Origin: an uncultured Candidatus Micrarchaeota archaeon | GTDB lineage: Archaea > Micrarchaeota > Micrarchaeia > Anstonellales > Bilamarchaeaceae | Length of the DNA: 64,000 nucleotides | Assembly (NCBI GenBank): GCA_963800555.1 | Contig: CAWDBH010000008.1 | Location: forward strand, 48,258-112,257 | Reading direction: 5' to 3' | Shown: piece after piece, positions 8,596 through 43,438 of the stretch | How the letters are laid out: each line of letters opens with the position of its first letter | How positions within the stretch are numbered: the first letter of the stretch is position 1 | Notes under the pieces: generated by a model | Seen by the model: the letters and a program-made list of their open reading frames with translations, nothing else | Databases searched by the model: none | What the model was told of the DNA's origin: nothing | Position numbers and translations under genes: made by a program

Positions 8596-8701
8596 AGCGG
8601 GGTAACAGAATCTAATGATTTAGATTCTGCCCTATGGGAAGCTTGGAGTTCCCGCTGGGCTCATAACCCAGAGATCGGTGGTTCAAATCCACTCCCCGCT
8701 A
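8596..8701 (+). tRNA. initiator-type tRNA-Met (CAU) interrupted by an about 31-nt insertion between positions 9 and 10 (non-canonical intron candidate, about 8605..8635)
   Basis: A1:U72 acceptor pair (AGCGGGG/CCCCGCT), three G:C pairs in the anticodon stem (CTGGG-CTCATAA-CCCAG), and T-arm GGTGG-TTCAAAT-CCACT. Removing acagaatctaatgatttagattctgccctat restores a canonical D arm (GGGA-AGCTTGGAGT-TCCC). The insert holds a perfect 10-bp hairpin, CAGAATCTAA-tgat-TTAGATTCTG. A T7 run follows. Confidence 0.6.
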
Positions 8702-11680: not shown

Positions 11681-11811
11681 TGCCGAGGGGGGAATTTGAA
11701 TCCCCGACCTCTCGATTTCTCGAGTGCATAATATCATCGGCATGATGCCTCATCACTCATCGGGTTTGCACCTATGAGTCGAGCACTCTCAACCAGCTGA
11801 GCTACCTCGGC
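11681..11811 (-). tRNA. elongator tRNA-Met (CAU) with a 56-nt intron at the canonical 37/38 position (intron about 11717..11772)
   Basis: Exon 1: GCCGAGG-TA-GCTC..GAGT-G-CTCGA-CTCATA. Exon 2: A-TCGAG-AGGTC-GGGGA-TTCAAAT-TCCCC-CCTCGGC-A, with a perfect acceptor stem. The intron carries GUGAUGA and GAUGA motifs. The track ORF 11529..11756 overlaps this tRNA and is spurious. Confidence 0.75.
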
Positions 11812-24080: not shown

Positions 24081-24185
24081 ACGGGCCTGGTGAGATTTGA
24101 ACTCACGACACACGGATTTCACCTTTTAGGAAAAGATTTCCTTCAGATAAGAGTCCGTCGCTCTACCAAGCTGAGCTACAGGCCC
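24081..24185 (-). tRNA. tRNA-Lys (CUU) with a 31-nt canonical (37/38) intron (about 24117..24147)
   Basis: GGGCCTG-TA-GCTC-AGCTTGGTA-GAGC-G-ACGGA-CTCTTA[intron]A-TCCGT-GTGTC-GTGAG-TTCAAAT-CTCAC-CAGGCCC-G. A TTTTATATTG box lies about 30 nt upstream and a T-rich tail follows. Confidence 0.75.
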
Positions 24186-37585: not shown

Positions 37586-38113
37586 ATGACCCTTGAGATA
37601 CGCTCCATGATAGTGCGGGACAAGCAGGCCTTCGTGCAGAAGGACGGCATGATGCGCCTGATAGGCAAGCCCATAGATGTCGCGAAGAAATGGACGGAGC
37701 AGGGCTGCAAGCTCATACACATAATCGATTCCGATGCGCAGAAGGGCATGTCGACCAACCTCGACATATACGACAATCTCACCTATTTCGTGAACGTCCA
37801 GGTGGAGTGCGCCCCCGTGCCCGCGATATTCACCAAGCTCCTGACGCTAAAATGCCGGATCGTCCTCCCCCCTTCCGCCGGCGCTTCCATAGCCGCGATG
37901 GCCGAGAAGAAGCTCCTTGTCGCGAAGATAGCCTCCGGTTCCTCTGTGAAAGATGCGGAGCTCAAGCCATTCCACGATGTCATATTGGAGGATGCGGACG
38001 ACGCATCCGTGGAACGGTTCGATTCCCTGGGGAAGAGGGTCATAATCTACGAGAAGGACAAGGGCAAGCTGAAAAACATGAAAAAGGTATGGGGCGTCAT
38101 TTCGACTTCTTGA
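37586..38113 (+). CDS. short HisA/HisF-like TIM-barrel-family protein (175 aa; possible half-barrel or degenerate copy)
   Basis: IRSMIVRDKQAFVQKDG... KPIDVAKKWTEQGCKLIHIIDSDAQKG ...VNVQVECAPVP align with HisA strands 1-3, but the GGG phosphate-binding motif is lost and the length fits only about 4-5 beta-alpha units. Confidence 0.45.
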   Translation: MTLEIRSMIVRDKQAFVQKDGMMRLIGKPIDVAKKWTEQGCKLIHIIDSDAQKGMSTNLDIYDNLTYFVNVQVECAPVPAIFTKLLTLKCRIVLPPSAGASIAAMAEKKLLVAKIASGSSVKDAELKPFHDVILEDADDASVERFDSLGKRVIIYEKDKGKLKNMKKVWGVISTS

Positions 38114-39092: not shown

Positions 39093-39697
39093 CCCTTCCT
39101 GTCTTTTTTGTTGAGGATCTCCTTTCCCATATCCGCTCTTCTCTTCATGTTCTCCTTCATCTGGGTCAGCTCCTCAGGATTCGCGACCTTCGTGAGGATA
39201 TATCTCTTGTATTCTGCCGTGGTGGCCGACATGTTGCCGAGGAGGTTATGCGCCTCGCTCAGCGGCAGCTTGATCTCGTCAGGCCTGAGTATCTCGGTGC
39301 TGAAAGGGCTGTTCGTCATGCAGATGCTGGCGAGCGTGTTGAAATCGATCGTGAGTATCTTGACGATAACGGAGGTGGTCCAGTTCATGTTCTTCTCACC
39401 GCCTACGGGCTCGTTTATCTCTCCGAGGGCGTATACCACGCCTTGCTTGGCGATCAAGGTGTTGACGAATCCTGTCCCGAGCTCCTGCACCATCTCTTTG
39501 GTGGCCGCATGCACATCGAAATAAAGCATGGCCAGCACACCGCCGTTGGCGATGGTCTCTTTAGTTACTTTCTCGACATCCATATCAAACACTCTGCCTT
39601 GCTCCAGTACGGAGCGTTTAAACAATCGCAATCTGCTTATTTCCAGAATATCCTTTATTAATACCCCCCAGACATTCTTTCTATAGGTGCTAATCAT
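39089..39697 (-). CDS. hypothetical protein co-transcribed with the KaiC-like ATPase
   Basis: 202 aa; ATGA overlap with the downstream KaiC-like gene. Confidence 0.45.
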   Translation of the reverse strand: MISTYRKNVWGVLIKDILEISRLRLFKRSVLEQGRVFDMDVEKVTKETIANGGVLAMLYFDVHAATKEMVQELGTGFVNTLIAKQGVVYALGEINEPVGGEKNMNWTTSVIVKILTIDFNTLASICMTNSPFSTEILRPDEIKLPLSEAHNLLGNMSATTAEYKRYILTKVANPEELTQMKENMKRRADMGKEILNKKDRKG

Positions 39698-41009
39698 GTG
39701 TGCATGGAAAAACGAGAGGCAAGGACGCCCCAGAAGACCCCAAAGCGAAGGTGCTCCGCAGAGAGAAAGCGGTCAAAGAAGCCCGGCAAGTTCTGATCAA
39801 GGAAACCCGCGGCCATCCTACAATCGCGAGAGGAGATACCCTCCACGAGAAGGAAGGGGCGGTGAAAGATACACTCCAAGCGAAGGCGCTCCACGGCGTG
39901 AAGGCGGTGAACGGAGATACCCTCCGCGTGAAGGGGAAAGGAGATATCCACGCGAAGGAAGCCATCAAGGGGGCGAGAGAAGATATCCTCCACGCGAAGG
40001 TTTCCAGAGGGGTGAAGGTGGAGGCGAAGTGCGGGAAGCGAACAGGCCCTACGCGAGCGGTGAAAGGAGATACCCTCCACGCCAGGTGGATCGCCGAGAA
40101 GGCGGTTTCCGCGGCCCGCCAAGAGAAGGCGGATACTCGAAGCCTCCGATCCCGAACGACCGTGGCGGATATGACCGCGCCATGAAGCGCGAGAGGTTCA
40201 TGTCACGATCCAAGGAAAGCGTGATGGAAGCGCTGAGGAGCAGGGACATGCTCCTCGCCAGCGTGACCAAGGCGCAGGACGACCTGGACAAGACGATCAA
40301 CCTCCTCGGCGAGAGGCTCGAGGACTGGTACGGCATCTACTTCCCGGAGCTGCGCGCGGAGGACAAGCTCAAATACGCGGAGGTCTCGCTCATAATAGAC
40401 CGGGAGAATTTCGATGAGAGCACAGTGCTCGCGATACTCGGCCCCAAGGCAGCCGCCGGGCTCTCCGAAGCTTCCAAGAAGAGCCTCGGCGCGAAGATAT
40501 CTCCGAAGGATCTCGACCAGTGCAAATCGCTGGCGAGGACCGTCGTCTCCTTGGACACGCTCCGCAGGGAATACGGGACCTACCAGAAGGAGATCGCCCT
40601 GGAGCTATGCCCGAACCTCACGGCGGTCGGAGGGTACGAGATCGCCGCGAAATTGGTTTCCCACGTGGGTTCGCTTGCGAAGCTGGCGATACTTCCGGCA
40701 AGCGCCATACAGGTGCTCGGAGCCGAGAAGGCGCTTTTCAAGCACCTCAAGAACCGGAACATCCCTCCGCCCAAGCACGGCATCATCTTCCAGCATCCGA
40801 AGATCTCATCTTCGCCAAGGATGGTCCGCGGGAAGATCGCCCGCGCCCTCGCGAACAAGCTTTGCCTCGCCGCCAAGGCGGACGCTTTCAGCAAGCGGGA
40901 CATCTCCGCTGATTTGAAGACCGGTTTCGAAACGCGGTTCGCGCAGATCATGAATCAGTACGAGAGCGCCAAGGCCAAAGGCCAGGTGCCGCGGGCCCCG
41001 GAAGAATGA
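39687..41009 (+). CDS. Nop-domain protein (Nop5/Nop56/58-like) with an N-terminal Arg/Gly/Pro/Glu-rich decapeptide-repeat extension
   Basis: C-terminal NOP domain ...LTAVGGYEIAAKLVSHVGSLAKLAILPASAIQVLGAEKALFKHL...HGIIFQHP...; the N-terminal about 165 aa are degenerate GERRYPPREG repeats. TATA tttattaata at 39653-39662. Confidence 0.7.
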   Translation: MLIMCAWKNERQGRPRRPQSEGAPQRESGQRSPASSDQGNPRPSYNRERRYPPREGRGGERYTPSEGAPRREGGERRYPPREGERRYPREGSHQGGERRYPPREGFQRGEGGGEVREANRPYASGERRYPPRQVDRREGGFRGPPREGGYSKPPIPNDRGGYDRAMKRERFMSRSKESVMEALRSRDMLLASVTKAQDDLDKTINLLGERLEDWYGIYFPELRAEDKLKYAEVSLIIDRENFDESTVLAILGPKAAAGLSEASKKSLGAKISPKDLDQCKSLARTVVSLDTLRREYGTYQKEIALELCPNLTAVGGYEIAAKLVSHVGSLAKLAILPASAIQVLGAEKALFKHLKNRNIPPPKHGIIFQHPKISSSPRMVRGKIARALANKLCLAAKADAFSKRDISADLKTGFETRFAQIMNQYESAKAKGQVPRAPEE

Positions 41010-41013
41010 TCGG

Positions 41014-41637
41014 ATGAGGATCCTGGCAGTGTCCGATATCCACGAGGAGGAAGCCGCGCTCGAATCGATCGCCGCGCTTTCATCGTCATACGATCACGTT
41101 TTCGTGTGCGGGGACATCTCGCGCAGCGTCTCGTTCGCGGAAGAGCTAATGAGAATCCCCAACGCGTTCATAGTCCCGGGCAACTGGGACAACGAGCAGG
41201 TGGGTCAGGCCCTTTCGAAATCCGCGCATTACGTTCATGAAAAGCGCGTCGAGATCGAGGATGGCCTGAACGTCGTGGGATTCGGATATGCGCCTCCGAG
41301 CCCGTTCTTCACGTACGGGGAGATCAGCGAAGAGGAGATATACTCCAGGATGAAGAAGCTGAAGATAGATGGCAACACTTTACTGCTGATGCATTCGCCT
41401 CCGAAAGGCTACCTCGACACAGGGTCATTGGGAAGGCACATCGGGAGCGAATCGATACTGAGAATCATCCAGGAGAAGAAACCGCTAGCCGCGTTCTTCG
41501 GCCATGCGCACGAGGCGCTCGGCATCGAGGAGCTGGACGGGACCACGCTCGTGAAGATCCCGCCTGCCAATTCAATGCGCGCCTGCGCGGTCACCGAAAT
41601 GCGTAAAAGAATTCACGCGGAGTACATATCGCTATGA
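41014..41637 (+). CDS. metallophosphoesterase (calcineurin-like)
   Basis: DIHEEE...VCGDIS...GNWD...HSPP...GHAHE motif series. Confidence 0.75.
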   Translation: MRILAVSDIHEEEAALESIAALSSSYDHVFVCGDISRSVSFAEELMRIPNAFIVPGNWDNEQVGQALSKSAHYVHEKRVEIEDGLNVVGFGYAPPSPFFTYGEISEEEIYSRMKKLKIDGNTLLLMHSPPKGYLDTGSLGRHIGSESILRIIQEKKPLAAFFGHAHEALGIEELDGTTLVKIPPANSMRACAVTEMRKRIHAEYISL

Positions 41638-42035
41638 TGGAATGGATGATAACGCTGCGCACGGCCATGCATTCAGACATGGACGATGCCAAAGGCTTCA
41701 TACGCAAGCTCTTCCCCAGGGCAATGGTCAGCGTAGCCGATGATGACGTGATAATCTTGGCCGAATACAACAACCGGATAGTCGGCTTCGCCCATATGAT
41801 AGACGAAGGAGACCGTATGGTGCTCCAAGGGCTCGGTGTGGATGGCGAGGCGCGTGGCCGCGGCGTGGGGACGTTGCTCCTCCAGCACATCCTGAACTCC
41901 ATAGACGAGGACGTCCCGGTGATGCTCAAAGTAAAGGCCATGAACCCGGCGGTGGACCTCTACGCGAGGCACGGCTTCTTCGTGAAACGGATGAACGACC
42001 ACACGCTGACGCTGGTCAGGAAGCCGAACGCGTGA
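41634..42035 (+). CDS. GNAT family N-acetyltransferase
   Basis: ...GLGVDGEARGRGVGTLLLQHIL... acetyl-CoA-binding motif; ATGA overlap with the upstream gene. Confidence 0.75.
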   Translation: MMEWMITLRTAMHSDMDDAKGFIRKLFPRAMVSVADDDVIILAEYNNRIVGFAHMIDEGDRMVLQGLGVDGEARGRGVGTLLLQHILNSIDEDVPVMLKVKAMNPAVDLYARHGFFVKRMNDHTLTLVRKPNA

Positions 42036-42082
42036 ATAGATTCCGTTAATAAGAATTTGCAATTGAAGTTTTGATTACTCAT

Positions 42083-42155
42083 GGGGAAGTGAGCCAACCT
42101 GGTATGCTGCTAGCTTTGGGAGCTGGTTATCTGAGTTCAAATCTCAGCTTCCCCA
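42083..42155 (+). tRNA. tRNA-Pro (UGG)
   Basis: GGGGAAG/CTTCCCC acceptor, anticodon arm CTAGC-TTTGGGA-GCTGG, T-arm CTGAG-TTCAAAT-CTCAG, followed by ttttattttt. Confidence 0.8.
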
Positions 42156-42283
42156 TTTTATTTTTGCTAATTTTTGCCTCGCAGCAAAATTCGCAATCTG
42201 GACAAATAGGCTCGCGTTGAACGCGTTTTCTCCTCCTCGGAACCCGACGTATCATTTATATAGTTAATTGCGAAAAACACCAC

Positions 42284-43438
42284 ATGGCAACCAGAAAGAT
42301 CCGACTCCCCAGCATAGAGGTTACTGGGTACCTCGAAGAGAACAAGAAGAAGATAAAACCGCCCCAACGCGGGGCGCTAGCGCAGGACCGCTACAGCTTA
42401 TCGCATTTGGCAAGCATCCTCACCAGCGGGACGCGACTGGCGATGCTCAATGCCGTGGACCGTCTGCGAGGAAGGGTCCGCGTGCTCGTCGAGCTCGCAT
42501 CATTCTCCACGTTCCAGTACGTGAGGCTCGCGGCCATAGAGAACCTGGCCGATGAGATCGAAGCCCTGGTCGATATCGCGAAATTCTGCCAGTACAGCGA
42601 CACGCGCTCTGCCGCAGTGGATGGATTATCATCAGAGACGAACGCGCTGTCCGAAGTATCGTGCTCCTCGCTTTTCGTCGATACGCGGCTCGAGGCCGTG
42701 AGCACCCTGACGGATCCGCAGGCCCTCTCATCAGTCGCCGCCCGCTCCCCGCACAAGGATTCCCGGAGCGCTGCCCTAGGGAAGATCGCTAAGAATCCCG
42801 CCGCACTGAAGAGGGTCGCAGAGGATTCATCCTACCGCACCTCCCGCCTCGAGGCCATAAAATGCCTCTCGAACGATATCAAGACGCTTTCCTCGCTCGT
42901 CCTCTCATCCAGGAACGCCGAGGTCAAGAAGACCGCTGCCTCCATGCTCTCTATCTACGTGGAAGAGCTCGATGACCCGGAGACGCTCGCCGAGATCGCG
43001 AAGCAGTCCCCGAACGAGGATGCACGATACCTCGCTGTCGGGAGATTATCCGGGGATCCGTGGGCGTTGCGCGGCATAATAGCGGACGCGAAATACGCGG
43101 ACGCCAAAAGCACCGCCATCATGCTGCTCTCCGATATGGTGCCAGAGCTTCAGGACGCTGAGATACTCTCCGATGTCGCGGTCATGTCCCCATACAAGGA
43201 CTGCAGGAGCGCCGCTATAGAGCGGCTCGCAGGCCAGAGCAATTCTCTGCTGAATGTGGCATCGAAATCCCGGTTCAAGGAATCCCGCGACATGGCACTC
43301 AACCTGCTCAAAAGCGACGTCGAGGCGTTGAAAAGCGCATCGAAGCTCTCGCGCTACCACGACACGAGAAAGAAGGCGCATGCGATGGTCTCGAAGCCGG
43401 ACGTGTTCCAGAACGAGCTGGAGCGGATACTCGGTTGA
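42284..43438 (+). CDS. HEAT / PBS-lyase-like repeat protein
   Basis: Repeated about 31-aa units of the form ...(S/D).(R/Y)..A(A/L)..L.... Confidence 0.6.
   Translation: MATRKIRLPSIEVTGYLEENKKKIKPPQRGALAQDRYSLSHLASILTSGTRLAMLNAVDRLRGRVRVLVELASFSTFQYVRLAAIENLADEIEALVDIAKFCQYSDTRSAAVDGLSSETNALSEVSCSSLFVDTRLEAVSTLTDPQALSSVAARSPHKDSRSAALGKIAKNPAALKRVAEDSSYRTSRLEAIKCLSNDIKTLSSLVLSSRNAEVKKTAASMLSIYVEELDDPETLAEIAKQSPNEDARYLAVGRLSGDPWALRGIIADAKYADAKSTAIMLLSDMVPELQDAEILSDVAVMSPYKDCRSAAIERLAGQSNSLLNVASKSRFKESRDMALNLLKSDVEALKSASKLSRYHDTRKKAHAMVSKPDVFQNELERILG

Follow-up and report, generated by a model that had tools for sequence, protein, structure and literature searches.

The window (the whole stretch of DNA analysed, 64 kb in length) carries a nop5 gene of the Micrarchaeota type, in which a putatively disordered Arg-rich arm is followed by a coiled-coil and a Nop domain, and in which the fibrillarin-binding N-terminal domain (NTD) is missing. 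Two short genes follow it closely. The features of the locus are:

39653..39665 (+): TATA-box-like element CTTTATTAATACC, aligned with CTTTAAAATACC, which stands equally far ahead of the ATG in over 15 nop5 loci of Micrarchaeota
39686..39695 (+): conserved 10-mer GGTGCTAATC (consensus GGTGCTAWTY) with a Shine-Dalgarno-like GGTG, abutting the start codon on its 5' side
39696..41009 (+): nop5, Micrarchaeota type (437 aa plus stop)
39696..40169 (+): N-terminal arm (aa 1-158) enriched in R, G, P, E and Y, probably intrinsically disordered, supported by composition, AlphaFold2 and substitution pattern
39700..40185 (+): spurious +1-frame ORF within the repeat region, which public assemblies of relatives (L001, L004) annotate as a gene; non-coding
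39828..39854 (+): repeat copy 1, ERRYPPREG (aa 45-53)
39861..39884 (+): degenerate repeat copy, ERYTPSEG (aa 56-63)
39909..39935 (+): repeat copy 2, ERRYPPREG (aa 72-80)
39936..39959 (+): repeat copy 3, ERRYPREG (aa 81-88)
39975..40001 (+): repeat copy 4, ERRYPPREG (aa 94-102)
40062..40085 (+): repeat copy 5, ERRYPPRQ (aa 123-130)
40170..40985 (+): structured Nop5 core (aa 159-430), comprising a linker helix, a coiled-coil and a Nop/C-terminal domain with GAEKALFKHL, PPKHGIIFQ and RGKIAR
41014..41637 (+): metallophosphoesterase (YfcE/MPPED2-like), operon partner, beginning 4 nt past the nop5 stop
41634..42035 (+): GNAT acetyltransferase (RimI-like), third gene of the conserved cluster, overlapping the metallophosphoesterase stop

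The ORF ends at 41009 (+) and offers two candidate starts, a GTG at 39687 (440-aa reading) and an ATG at 39696 (437 aa). The GTG, from which the gene had been read when only the sequence was considered, falls within the conserved GGTG element and was rejected; the ATG is most likely the start. Both the TATA-like box, which we suggest acts as a promoter, and the GGTG-containing 10-mer are found again before the start codon in over 15 species, the 10-mer being kept in L011-L014, L016-L018, L020-L024, L029, L030, L035 and L037. This conserved 10-mer also accounts for the apparent "VLIM/VLFM" prefix of ORFs that are read from the GTG.

The Arg-rich arm and its translation

Low complexity and richness in arginine had been ascribed to the first ~165 residues, and the composition of the first ~160 bears this out (R 22%, G 16%, P 14%, E 12%, Y 6%); lysine makes up 2% of the arm, and there is a single RGG. 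AlphaFold2 gives the arm a pLDDT of ~46-59 and no secondary structure. When its k-mer counts were compared with those of 5000 composition-preserving shuffles, the arm proved repetitive beyond chance, with ERRYP occurring five times and 21 redundant 5-mers against a shuffle mean of 0.31 and a maximum of 5. The sequence-only reading had described about 16 Arg-rich decapeptide repeats, of which the repetition itself stands but the number and regularity do not: we find five clear copies of ERRYP(P)RE(G), at aa 45, 72, 81, 94 and 123 with an irregular spacing of 9-29 aa, and ~6 degenerate units (one ERYTPSEG and ~5 shorter xREG/SEG). As these are too diverged and irregular at the DNA level, Tandem Repeats Finder reported no tandem array in 39600-40300, though find_repeats picked them up, as did the k-mer shuffles. 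A search of the 64-kb window for other R/G-rich arms turned up only alternative-frame artefacts.

Translation of the arm from ATG 39696 is indicated by its pattern of divergence. In a frame-blind DNA alignment of the arm region, substitutions at codon phases 1/2/3 of the nop5 frame number 18/25/56 against L004/L011 and 38/36/67 against L001, indels relative to the relatives are mostly multiples of 3, and the long in-frame ORF running through the arm stays open in L001, L002, L004 and L011 despite 15-50% divergence. The earlier claim that the repeat region is really coding is thus upheld by the third-position excess and by the indel lengths. An untranslated leader, with the protein beginning at the internal Met (40182) or at the conserved RFM Met, would agree with the public gene callers, which put the start of the closest homologs (P0001-P0003) at the internal Met, and with the many Micrarchaeota Nop5 proteins that start near it. 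It is nonetheless extremely improbable, as an internal start is contradicted by the codon-phase pattern, the indels and the frame kept open in all the relatives, as the promoter-like box and the GGTG element precede ATG 39696 and not the internal Met, and as Met163 is not conserved in L002. The +1-frame ORF at 39700..40185 is open because of the composition of the arm, and it was rejected as a real overlapping gene since substitutions fall on the third positions of the nop5 frame and not of the +1 frame. Public gene calls for Micrarchaeota Nop5 are often wrong, combining a truncated start with a spurious +1-frame ORF.

Arms rich in Arg and Gly occur in other Micrarchaeota as well, with differing repeat units, lengths of 0-221 aa and a location at either the N- or the C-terminus, and they appear from these sequences to have arisen repeatedly within the phylum. 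The arm of L060 repeats REGGRSREGGFSRD ~15 times; further N-terminal arms are found in L047, L052, L025, L042 and L037, and C-terminal ones in L062, P0091 and P0100. As to whether homologues carry the repeat extension, some have arms, but many Micrarchaeota Nop5 proteins have none (N-extension of 0-10 aa), and the arm therefore cannot be a general substitute for the NTD.

A Nop5 core and the missing fibrillarin-binding domain

The C-terminal NOP domain is as clear as the sequence-only reading had it. Pfam Nop (PF01798) matches aa 198-417 of the 440-aa reading with an E-value of 3e-53, and phmmer aligns aa 169-429 to residues 122-385 of S. solfataricus (Sso) Nop5 (E 4.5e-57, 42-44% identity over ~260 aa). 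The coiled-coil, which in Nop5 is the dimerisation domain and sits between two halves of the C-terminal domain, has helices spanning 159-215 and 270-304 in the AlphaFold2 model, whose core has a pLDDT above 90, and the Foldseek match that ranks best by target TM-score is 3icx_A, Nop5(135-380) (TMt 0.90, rmsd 1.9 Å), with 3nvi_A at TMt 0.85 and Prp31 at TMt ~0.8. The motifs of the RNA/L7Ae face, GAEKALFKHL, PPKHGIIFQ and RGKIAR, are invariant across the 45 members of the family alignment. Against Prp31 itself the core reaches an E-value of ~1e-13 and 21-23% identity, and the earlier suggestion of a "Prp31/Nop-like paralog" is not supported, since the core is far nearer to archaeal Nop5. The gene thus appears, on sequence grounds, to be the Nop5 ortholog of the Micrarchaeota lineage, with a Prp31-like architecture.

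That the arm stands where the fibrillarin-binding region should be is supported, inasmuch as Pfam NOP5NT does not match this protein, an NTD HMM gives E >0.1, and aa 1-158 are predicted to be disordered. Alignments to canonical proteins begin only at Nop5 residue 122, or at position 126 of the NCBIfam aNOP56 equivalog NF011121, of whose 417 model positions 126-391 are matched, at 275.6 bits and thus below the cutoff of 452. By tblastn, with a fibrillarin query validated on 26 control loci, neither fibrillarin nor L7Ae was found in the 64-kb window, and so the earlier remark that no fibrillarin gene lies alongside was correct.

The same architecture extends across the phylum. Our genome scan took the best 80 of 514 relatives, with ~6-20 kb readable around each gene, and we compared 54 Micrarchaeota species representatives with 26 controls from Bathyarchaeia, Nitrososphaeria and Thermoprotei. 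Both the Nop5 NTD and a nearby fibrillarin are absent in 54/54 of the Micrarchaeota in this set of the best 80 of 514 (fibrillarin within 3 kb of nop5: 0/54 loci), whereas the NTD is present and fibrillarin immediately downstream in 26/26 controls. The NTD HMM finds all 26 controls, gives E >0.1 for 54/54 Micrarchaeota proteins and detects nothing in a six-frame translation of ~0.5 Mb; as it was built from these 26 canonical proteins, all from Thermoproteota, and as the NTD is poorly conserved, its sensitivity is limited. The absence of the NTD from every Micrarchaeota sampled makes an early loss within the phylum most likely, and the comparison indicates that the NTD-less Nop5 characterises the lineage as a whole and is neither a local peculiarity nor a paralog. 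Our literature search on fibrillarin and Nop5 of Micrarchaeota and DPANN returned no paper describing such an architecture, and the PMC8561730 supplement holds nothing on either protein.

Fibrillarin and other candidate partners

Micrarchaeota keep fibrillarin as an unlinked, stand-alone gene without a canonical nop5 beside it. The genes for the NTD-less Nop5 and for fibrillarin are ~22 kb from each other on contig JAVZHX010000001.1. The fibrillarin has a full length of ~220 aa and shows 57-64% identity over the methyltransferase domain. An L7Ae-type match is given for one Micrarchaeota MAG in the PMC7608942 supplement. Rfam at gathering thresholds identified tRNAs only in the whole window, and a regular expression for C / D' / C' / D sRNAs was uninformative, since the 0.16 Mb of control DNA gave 0 matches just as the window and the 0.5 Mb of Micrarchaeota DNA did.

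Could this gene be an ordinary, Prp31-like extra copy, with a canonical nop5-fibrillarin pair elsewhere in the genome? With just 64 kb of this genome in the window and the best 80 of 514 relatives in the scan, there is some room for such a pair. Yet a single NTD-less nop5 locus per species was recovered in 54 species, and no second one from those assemblies, among the best 80 of 514 relatives; no nop5 stands beside the Micrarchaeota fibrillarin genes, and in E-value the core stands 40 orders of magnitude closer to Nop5 than to Prp31. A single NOP56-type match is likewise reported for the one Micrarchaeota MAG covered by a published survey (PMC7608942, supplement). We regard a paralog as very improbable.

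It is also unlikely, though less so, that Nop5 was split, with the NTD persisting as a separate small protein that bridges fibrillarin to the NTD-less Nop5 within an otherwise normal C/D methylation RNP with an extra subunit. The retention of a well-conserved fibrillarin argues for a remaining partner or function, and only short flanks of each genome were readable. However, no stand-alone NTD-like ORF adjoins nop5, or fibrillarin in L008, L009, L010 and L092, where the upstream ORFs encode a 51-52-aa Cys-rich peptide or a hydrophobic 174-aa protein, and the NTD HMM, within its limited sensitivity, was negative in the ~0.5 Mb of Micrarchaeota DNA. Another thought is that the NTD-less Nop5 has exchanged fibrillarin for a new effector, the MPE (metallophosphoesterase) of its operon, with or without the GNAT protein, forming a K-turn/guide-RNA RNP with phosphoesterase activity while fibrillarin acts alone. 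The downstream gene had already been called a metallophosphoesterase, and PF12850 and PF00149 agree. It lies directly downstream of nop5, either a few nucleotides away or overlapping it, in ~45/54 Micrarchaeota species loci among the best 80 of 514 relatives, with an MPE identity of 33-90% across these loci, and also in L091 and L093; it thereby holds the position that fibrillarin has in the 26/26 canonical loci. But in compact genomes gene order alone says little, and a gene of this kind is missing downstream of nop5 in the Micrarchaeum-like group (L048-L050, L054, L057-L059, L061). Nor does Nop5 offer a docking domain for the MPE, which is of a generic YfcE/MPPED2-like type not known to be linked to RNA, and for which a PDB sequence search gave weak MPPED2 matches only. 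A change of effector thus seems quite unlikely.

Comparison with known RNP proteins and interpretation

The archaeal Nop5 proteins (aNOP56/58; S. solfataricus 3ID5/3PLA, P. furiosus 2NNW), scaffolds of the box C/D sRNP in which the methyltransferase fibrillarin carries out RNA-guided rRNA methylation, share with the Micrarchaeota protein the coiled-coil and Nop/C-terminal domain and the motifs GAEKALF, PKHGIIFQ and RGKIAR, and the predicted fold of the Micrarchaeota core superposes on theirs. They possess, however, a fibrillarin-binding NTD of ~120 aa and typically, though not obligatorily, form an operon with fibrillarin; the Micrarchaeota protein has neither, and here it carries an N-terminal, putatively disordered Arg-rich arm instead of or besides a short C-terminal tail. 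Prp31 of the U4 snRNP (2OZB, 3SIU) has the same architecture, a coiled-coil and a Nop domain without an NTD, and its Nop domain reads the K-turn bound by 15.5K/L7Ae. It is thought to come from Nop5 through loss of the NTD (PMC11213020). The Micrarchaeota protein differs from it by its low identity and by being archaeal, with no spliceosome; it falls outside the Prp31 clade, and its NTD loss appears to be independent. Further counterparts are laboratory truncations, the delta-NTD constructs of Nop5 (3ICX, Sso Nop5 135-380; 3NVI, P. furiosus truncated Nop56/58 with L7Ae and C/D RNA), whose boundaries are nearly identical to those of the Micrarchaeota core. According to the entry titles they still assemble with L7Ae and C/D RNA. 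Being truncated, they are unable to recruit fibrillarin; what was engineered there seems to have arisen naturally in Micrarchaeota and to hold for the entire phylum.

Charged low-complexity extensions of snoRNP and splicing proteins include the KKE/D, GAR/RGG and RS domains. The arm had been likened to GAR/RGG and KKE/D extensions, which is apt as an analogy only. Like the KKE/D tails of Nop56/58, the GAR/RGG domains of fibrillarin and Gar1, and RS and Arg-rich mixed-charge domains, it is a charged, repeat-built, fast-evolving and apparently disordered RNP appendage. Its composition is different: KKE/D tails are Lys-rich and C-terminal, whereas the arm is poor in lysine and N-terminal, and it departs from GAR/RGG by its single RGG, its content of P, E and Y and its ERRYPPREG unit, of which we know no description as a motif. 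The arms of L037 (RGGDRGG) and L025 come nearer to GAR. Unlike the extensions of snoRNP and splicing proteins, the arm is found N-terminally in the place of a folded domain.

We consider it rather probable that Micrarchaeota Nop5 has a derived, lineage-wide architecture, in which the NTD was lost, the nop5-fibrillarin operon is gone and the coiled-coil and Nop core were kept, with a translated Arg-rich arm added in the organism studied here. The ancestral NTD would have been lost early and the operon dissolved, and the remaining core would most likely still homodimerise and bind L7Ae-bound kink-turn RNAs. The arm, ~158 aa of net-positive mixed charge at the new N-terminus, would have grown by duplication of ERRYPPREG-type units. 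Its composition suggests a role in binding RNA, and by analogy with KKE/D tails and GAR/RS-type domains it may bind RNA non-specifically or act in chaperoning or condensation. Canonical docking of fibrillarin through Nop5 would, we infer, have ceased.

To our knowledge, the Nop5 NTD is the only known means of placing fibrillarin on the guide-target duplex, and delta-NTD Nop5 assembles in vitro with L7Ae and RNA but fails to recruit fibrillarin. As Micrarchaeota keep fibrillarin and seem to have only an NTD-less Nop5, there should be a new recruitment route, a guide-free fibrillarin or a non-methylation role of the Nop5-L7Ae-RNA particle. Going further, fibrillarin may be fully uncoupled, acting alone or via an adaptor, with the only Nop5 being a natural delta-NTD, Prp31-like K-turn RNP protein, maybe an RNA chaperone or assembly scaffold that does not guide methylation, possibly with the MPE as a partner and with lineage-specific Arg-rich arms. 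Archaea would thereby have repeated, independently, the passage from Nop5 to Prp31; we put this reading forward tentatively, as conceivable though not likely.

Any of the three outcomes (new recruitment, guide-free fibrillarin, non-methylation particle) would alter the textbook picture of the archaeal box C/D RNP. Micrarchaeota Nop5 would moreover offer a natural model for the origin of Prp31 from Nop5, and its Arg-rich arms, which seem to have evolved repeatedly, may represent a rare prokaryotic counterpart of the GAR, RS and KKE/D appendages found on eukaryotic RNP proteins.

Nop5 without a fibrillarin-binding domain

The window protein retains the coiled coil and the Nop domain of Nop5. Nop (PF01798, E = 3e-53) is the single Pfam domain in the ORF, and the fibrillarin-binding N-terminal domain (NTD) of canonical archaeal Nop5, NOP5NT, has no Pfam match in the protein. 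Residues 169-429 of its 437 aa align with residues 122-385 of S. solfataricus Nop5 (E = 4.5e-57, phmmer against PDB), that is, with all of that protein beyond its fibrillarin-binding domain, versus only ~1e-13 for Prp31, which has this architecture in common with the window protein but to whose clade the latter does not belong. The NCBIfam aNOP56 equivalog aligns only over model positions 126-391, and its 275.6 bits fall below the cutoff of 452. An AlphaFold2 model built from a 45-sequence family alignment shows residues 1-158 devoid of secondary structure (pLDDT ~46-59) and residues 159-430 mostly above pLDDT 90; the modelled core can be superposed on 3icx_A, the Nop5(135-380) fragment solved by crystallography (TMt 0.90, rmsd 1.9 A), and on 3nvi_A, an N-terminally truncated P. 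furiosus Nop56/58 (TMt 0.85). In the same alignment, the motifs which in solved complexes face L7Ae and the K-turn do not vary across the family. The protein is an ortholog of archaeal Nop5 predicted to work alike, yet without the NTD and operon features that define the family.

An NTD-less Nop5 is the rule in Micrarchaeota and not the exception. The best 120 matches of two protein searches were exclusively Nop-only proteins (254-447 aa), the named ones nearly all from Micrarchaeota, Micrarchaeia, Bilamarchaeum or Anstonellaceae. A genome scan with one genome per species (best 80 of 514 relatives) gave 54 Micrarchaeota loci and 26 control loci from Bathyarchaeia, Nitrososphaeria and Thermoprotei. 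All 26 controls carry an N-terminal extension of ~113-157 aa before the core and a fibrillarin gene directly downstream. Among the 54 Micrarchaeota loci of this set, none has fibrillarin within 3 kb of nop5, no protein matches an HMM of the control NTDs (E above 0.1), and the core is preceded by 0-15 aa or by ~20-221 aa of low-complexity sequence rich in Arg and Gly; at a few loci, reading the longest ORF carries the extension upstream past the conserved ATG into non-repeat sequence. No second Nop5 or separate NTD was found within the 64 kb covered of the window genome and the short flanks covered of the others. A metallophosphoesterase gene lies directly 3' of nop5 in ~45 of the 54 loci, usually followed by a GNAT gene, a pair not present downstream of nop5 in the Micrarchaeum-like group; upstream, closer relatives carry HisRS, a KaiC-like ATPase and an MJ0538-family gene. 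The kept nop5-metallophosphoesterase order weakly suggests a functional link.

Fibrillarin itself has not been lost from Micrarchaeota. The supplement of a published survey (PMC7608942) gives one fibrillarin, with its sequence, one NOP56-type protein and an L7Ae-type match for one Micrarchaeota MAG. A search with that fibrillarin returned fibrillarins of ~220 aa, the named ones almost all from Micrarchaeia, Anstonellaceae, Ca. Burarchaeum or Ca. Gugararchaeum. On four such contigs the gene stands alone, with neither nop5 nor an NTD-like ORF adjoining. Contig JAVZHX010000001.1 carries an NTD-less nop5 followed by the metallophosphoesterase at ~106.6 kb, and fibrillarin at ~129.2 kb on the opposite strand; therefore one genome holds both genes, unlinked. 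Two related Micrarchaeia contigs share a 51-52-aa Cys-rich ORF (MKRCPLMFVAEKGVGVFGSSTGECIGE.CMWFVD.DCAVSVIAKG) just 5' of fibrillarin (L008, 4747-4905; L092, 3326-3481).

Start and translation of the arm

39653-39665, + strand: upstream element CTTTATTAATACC, aligning with CTTTAAAATACC in relatives
39686-39695, + strand: upstream element GGTGCTAATC, aligning with GGTGCTAWTY in relatives
41007-41009, + strand: stop codon of nop5 (ORF reading)

In more than 15 further Micrarchaeota species, CTTTAAAATACC and GGTGCTAWTY stand at the corresponding positions 5' of the ATG. Since GTG 39687 belongs to the conserved GGTG element, ATG 39696 is the likely start. Both elements (window 39653-39695; loci L011-L037 of relatives) are strongly kept though the proteins are only 65-70% identical, a conservation that exceeds the need of a plain Shine-Dalgarno.

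The long in-frame ORF is open in four close relatives (439-463 aa), whose cores are 95-96% (L004, L011), 91% (L001) and 85% (L002) identical to that of the window. In a frame-blind DNA alignment, substitutions at nop5 codon positions 1/2/3 number 18/25/56 versus L004/L011 and 38/36/67 versus L001, and gap runs in the arm are mostly multiples of 3; codon-aligned counts agree. Because substitutions concentrate at its third positions and gaps mostly keep the frame, the nop5 frame is the selected one. This pattern and the open ORFs uphold the sequence-only reading that the repeats are really coding; the substitution pattern rejects both an untranslated leader and the +1-frame ORF 39700-40185 as a gene. 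Pattern and open ORFs also speak against a start at the internal Met, which had been named as the refuting case; Met163 is not conserved in L002. Public gene calls in relatives split nop5 into a spurious +1-frame ORF, equivalent to window 39700-40185, and an N-terminally truncated Nop protein starting at an internal Met:

L001, 5444-6004: spurious +1-frame ORF
L003, 1-396: spurious +1-frame ORF
L004, 156-632: spurious +1-frame ORF

No stop interrupts the real, long ORF in any relative with such calls, and database lengths for Micrarchaeota Nop5 therefore under-report the frequency of the arm.

The first ~160 residues contain 22% R, 16% G, 14% P, 12% E and 6% Y, with five ERRYP(P)R copies (aa 45, 72, 81, 94, 123), one ERYTPSEG and ~5 shorter xREG/SEG units. 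Given so few clear copies and their irregular spacing, the earlier count of ~16 decapeptides was too high, while the Arg-rich repeat arm of ~160 aa stands. Its redundancy is far above chance (21 redundant 5-mers; mean 0.31 and maximum 5 in 5000 shuffles). The copies are 62-88% identical at the DNA level, and TRF found no tandem array in the arm DNA.

Other genes in the window

8636-8693, + strand: partial tRNA match (Rfam, model positions 10-63)
11681-11811, - strand: tRNA (Rfam), 131 nt
24082-24185, - strand: tRNA (Rfam), 104 nt
37586-38113, + strand: ORF directly after HisRS, conserved at 168-176 aa (L001, 3260-3790; L002, 3392-3898; L005, 7886-8392)
38097-39583, - strand: KaiC-like ATPase and MJ0538-family (PF27325) pair, divergent from nop5
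42284-43438, + strand: 384-aa protein with many degenerate HEAT/PBS-lyase-like repeats (weak PF13646 match)

All three tRNA matches were missed by ARAGORN and probably represent tRNA genes with introns or other unusual features, as known for ARMAN-type Micrarchaeota. The sole match of the post-HisRS ORF is a weak one to His_biosynth (PF00977, aa 23-73), and it may encode a shortened HisA/HisF-like barrel protein. The KaiC-like/MJ0538-family pair is conserved in L001, L002 and L005-L007, the window KaiC-like protein having a Pro/Ala/Lys-rich low-complexity C-terminal tail. The HEAT-like gene follows tRNA-Pro (42082-42156), a position kept in L005 (12174-13331).

Repeated origin and possible role of the arms

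Arg-rich arms arose repeatedly in Micrarchaeota. The arm unit is REGGRSREGGFSRD in L060 (~15 copies), DQPRDQPR in L042 and RGGDRGG in L037; the arms of L047, L052, L053 and L025 are GG/RS/Y-rich, and the Arg-rich repeats are C-terminal instead of N-terminal in L062, P0091 and P0100. The closest clade has in common a short ancestral N-terminus of 20-55 aa ('M-R/K-x-K/R-R-P...RGxRG'), which grew to ~160 aa in the window species. REGGRSREGGFSRD includes RS dipeptides, as in eukaryotic RS domains; the L062 protein ends in a 239-aa GDRREGGSRSYGERPRSNY array, and tandem repeats are much more regular in L060, L052, L047 and L062 than in the window.

We found no paper on NTD-less Nop5 in Micrarchaeota or on its arms. 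The arm is accessory and not a replacement of the NTD, because many Micrarchaeota Nop5 proteins have no arm at all. Judging from its composition, this net-positive, mixed-charge disordered segment could confer non-specific RNA affinity or chaperone/condensation behaviour, which would make it similar to appendages of the KKE/D, GAR or RS type. From what is known of box C/D RNPs and of crystallised delta-NTD constructs, the window protein would dimerise and bind L7Ae-bound K-turn RNAs, and would be unable to hold fibrillarin in the canonical way. Fibrillarin may be used through an adaptor, through a stand-alone NTD or without guides, or may not work with Nop5.
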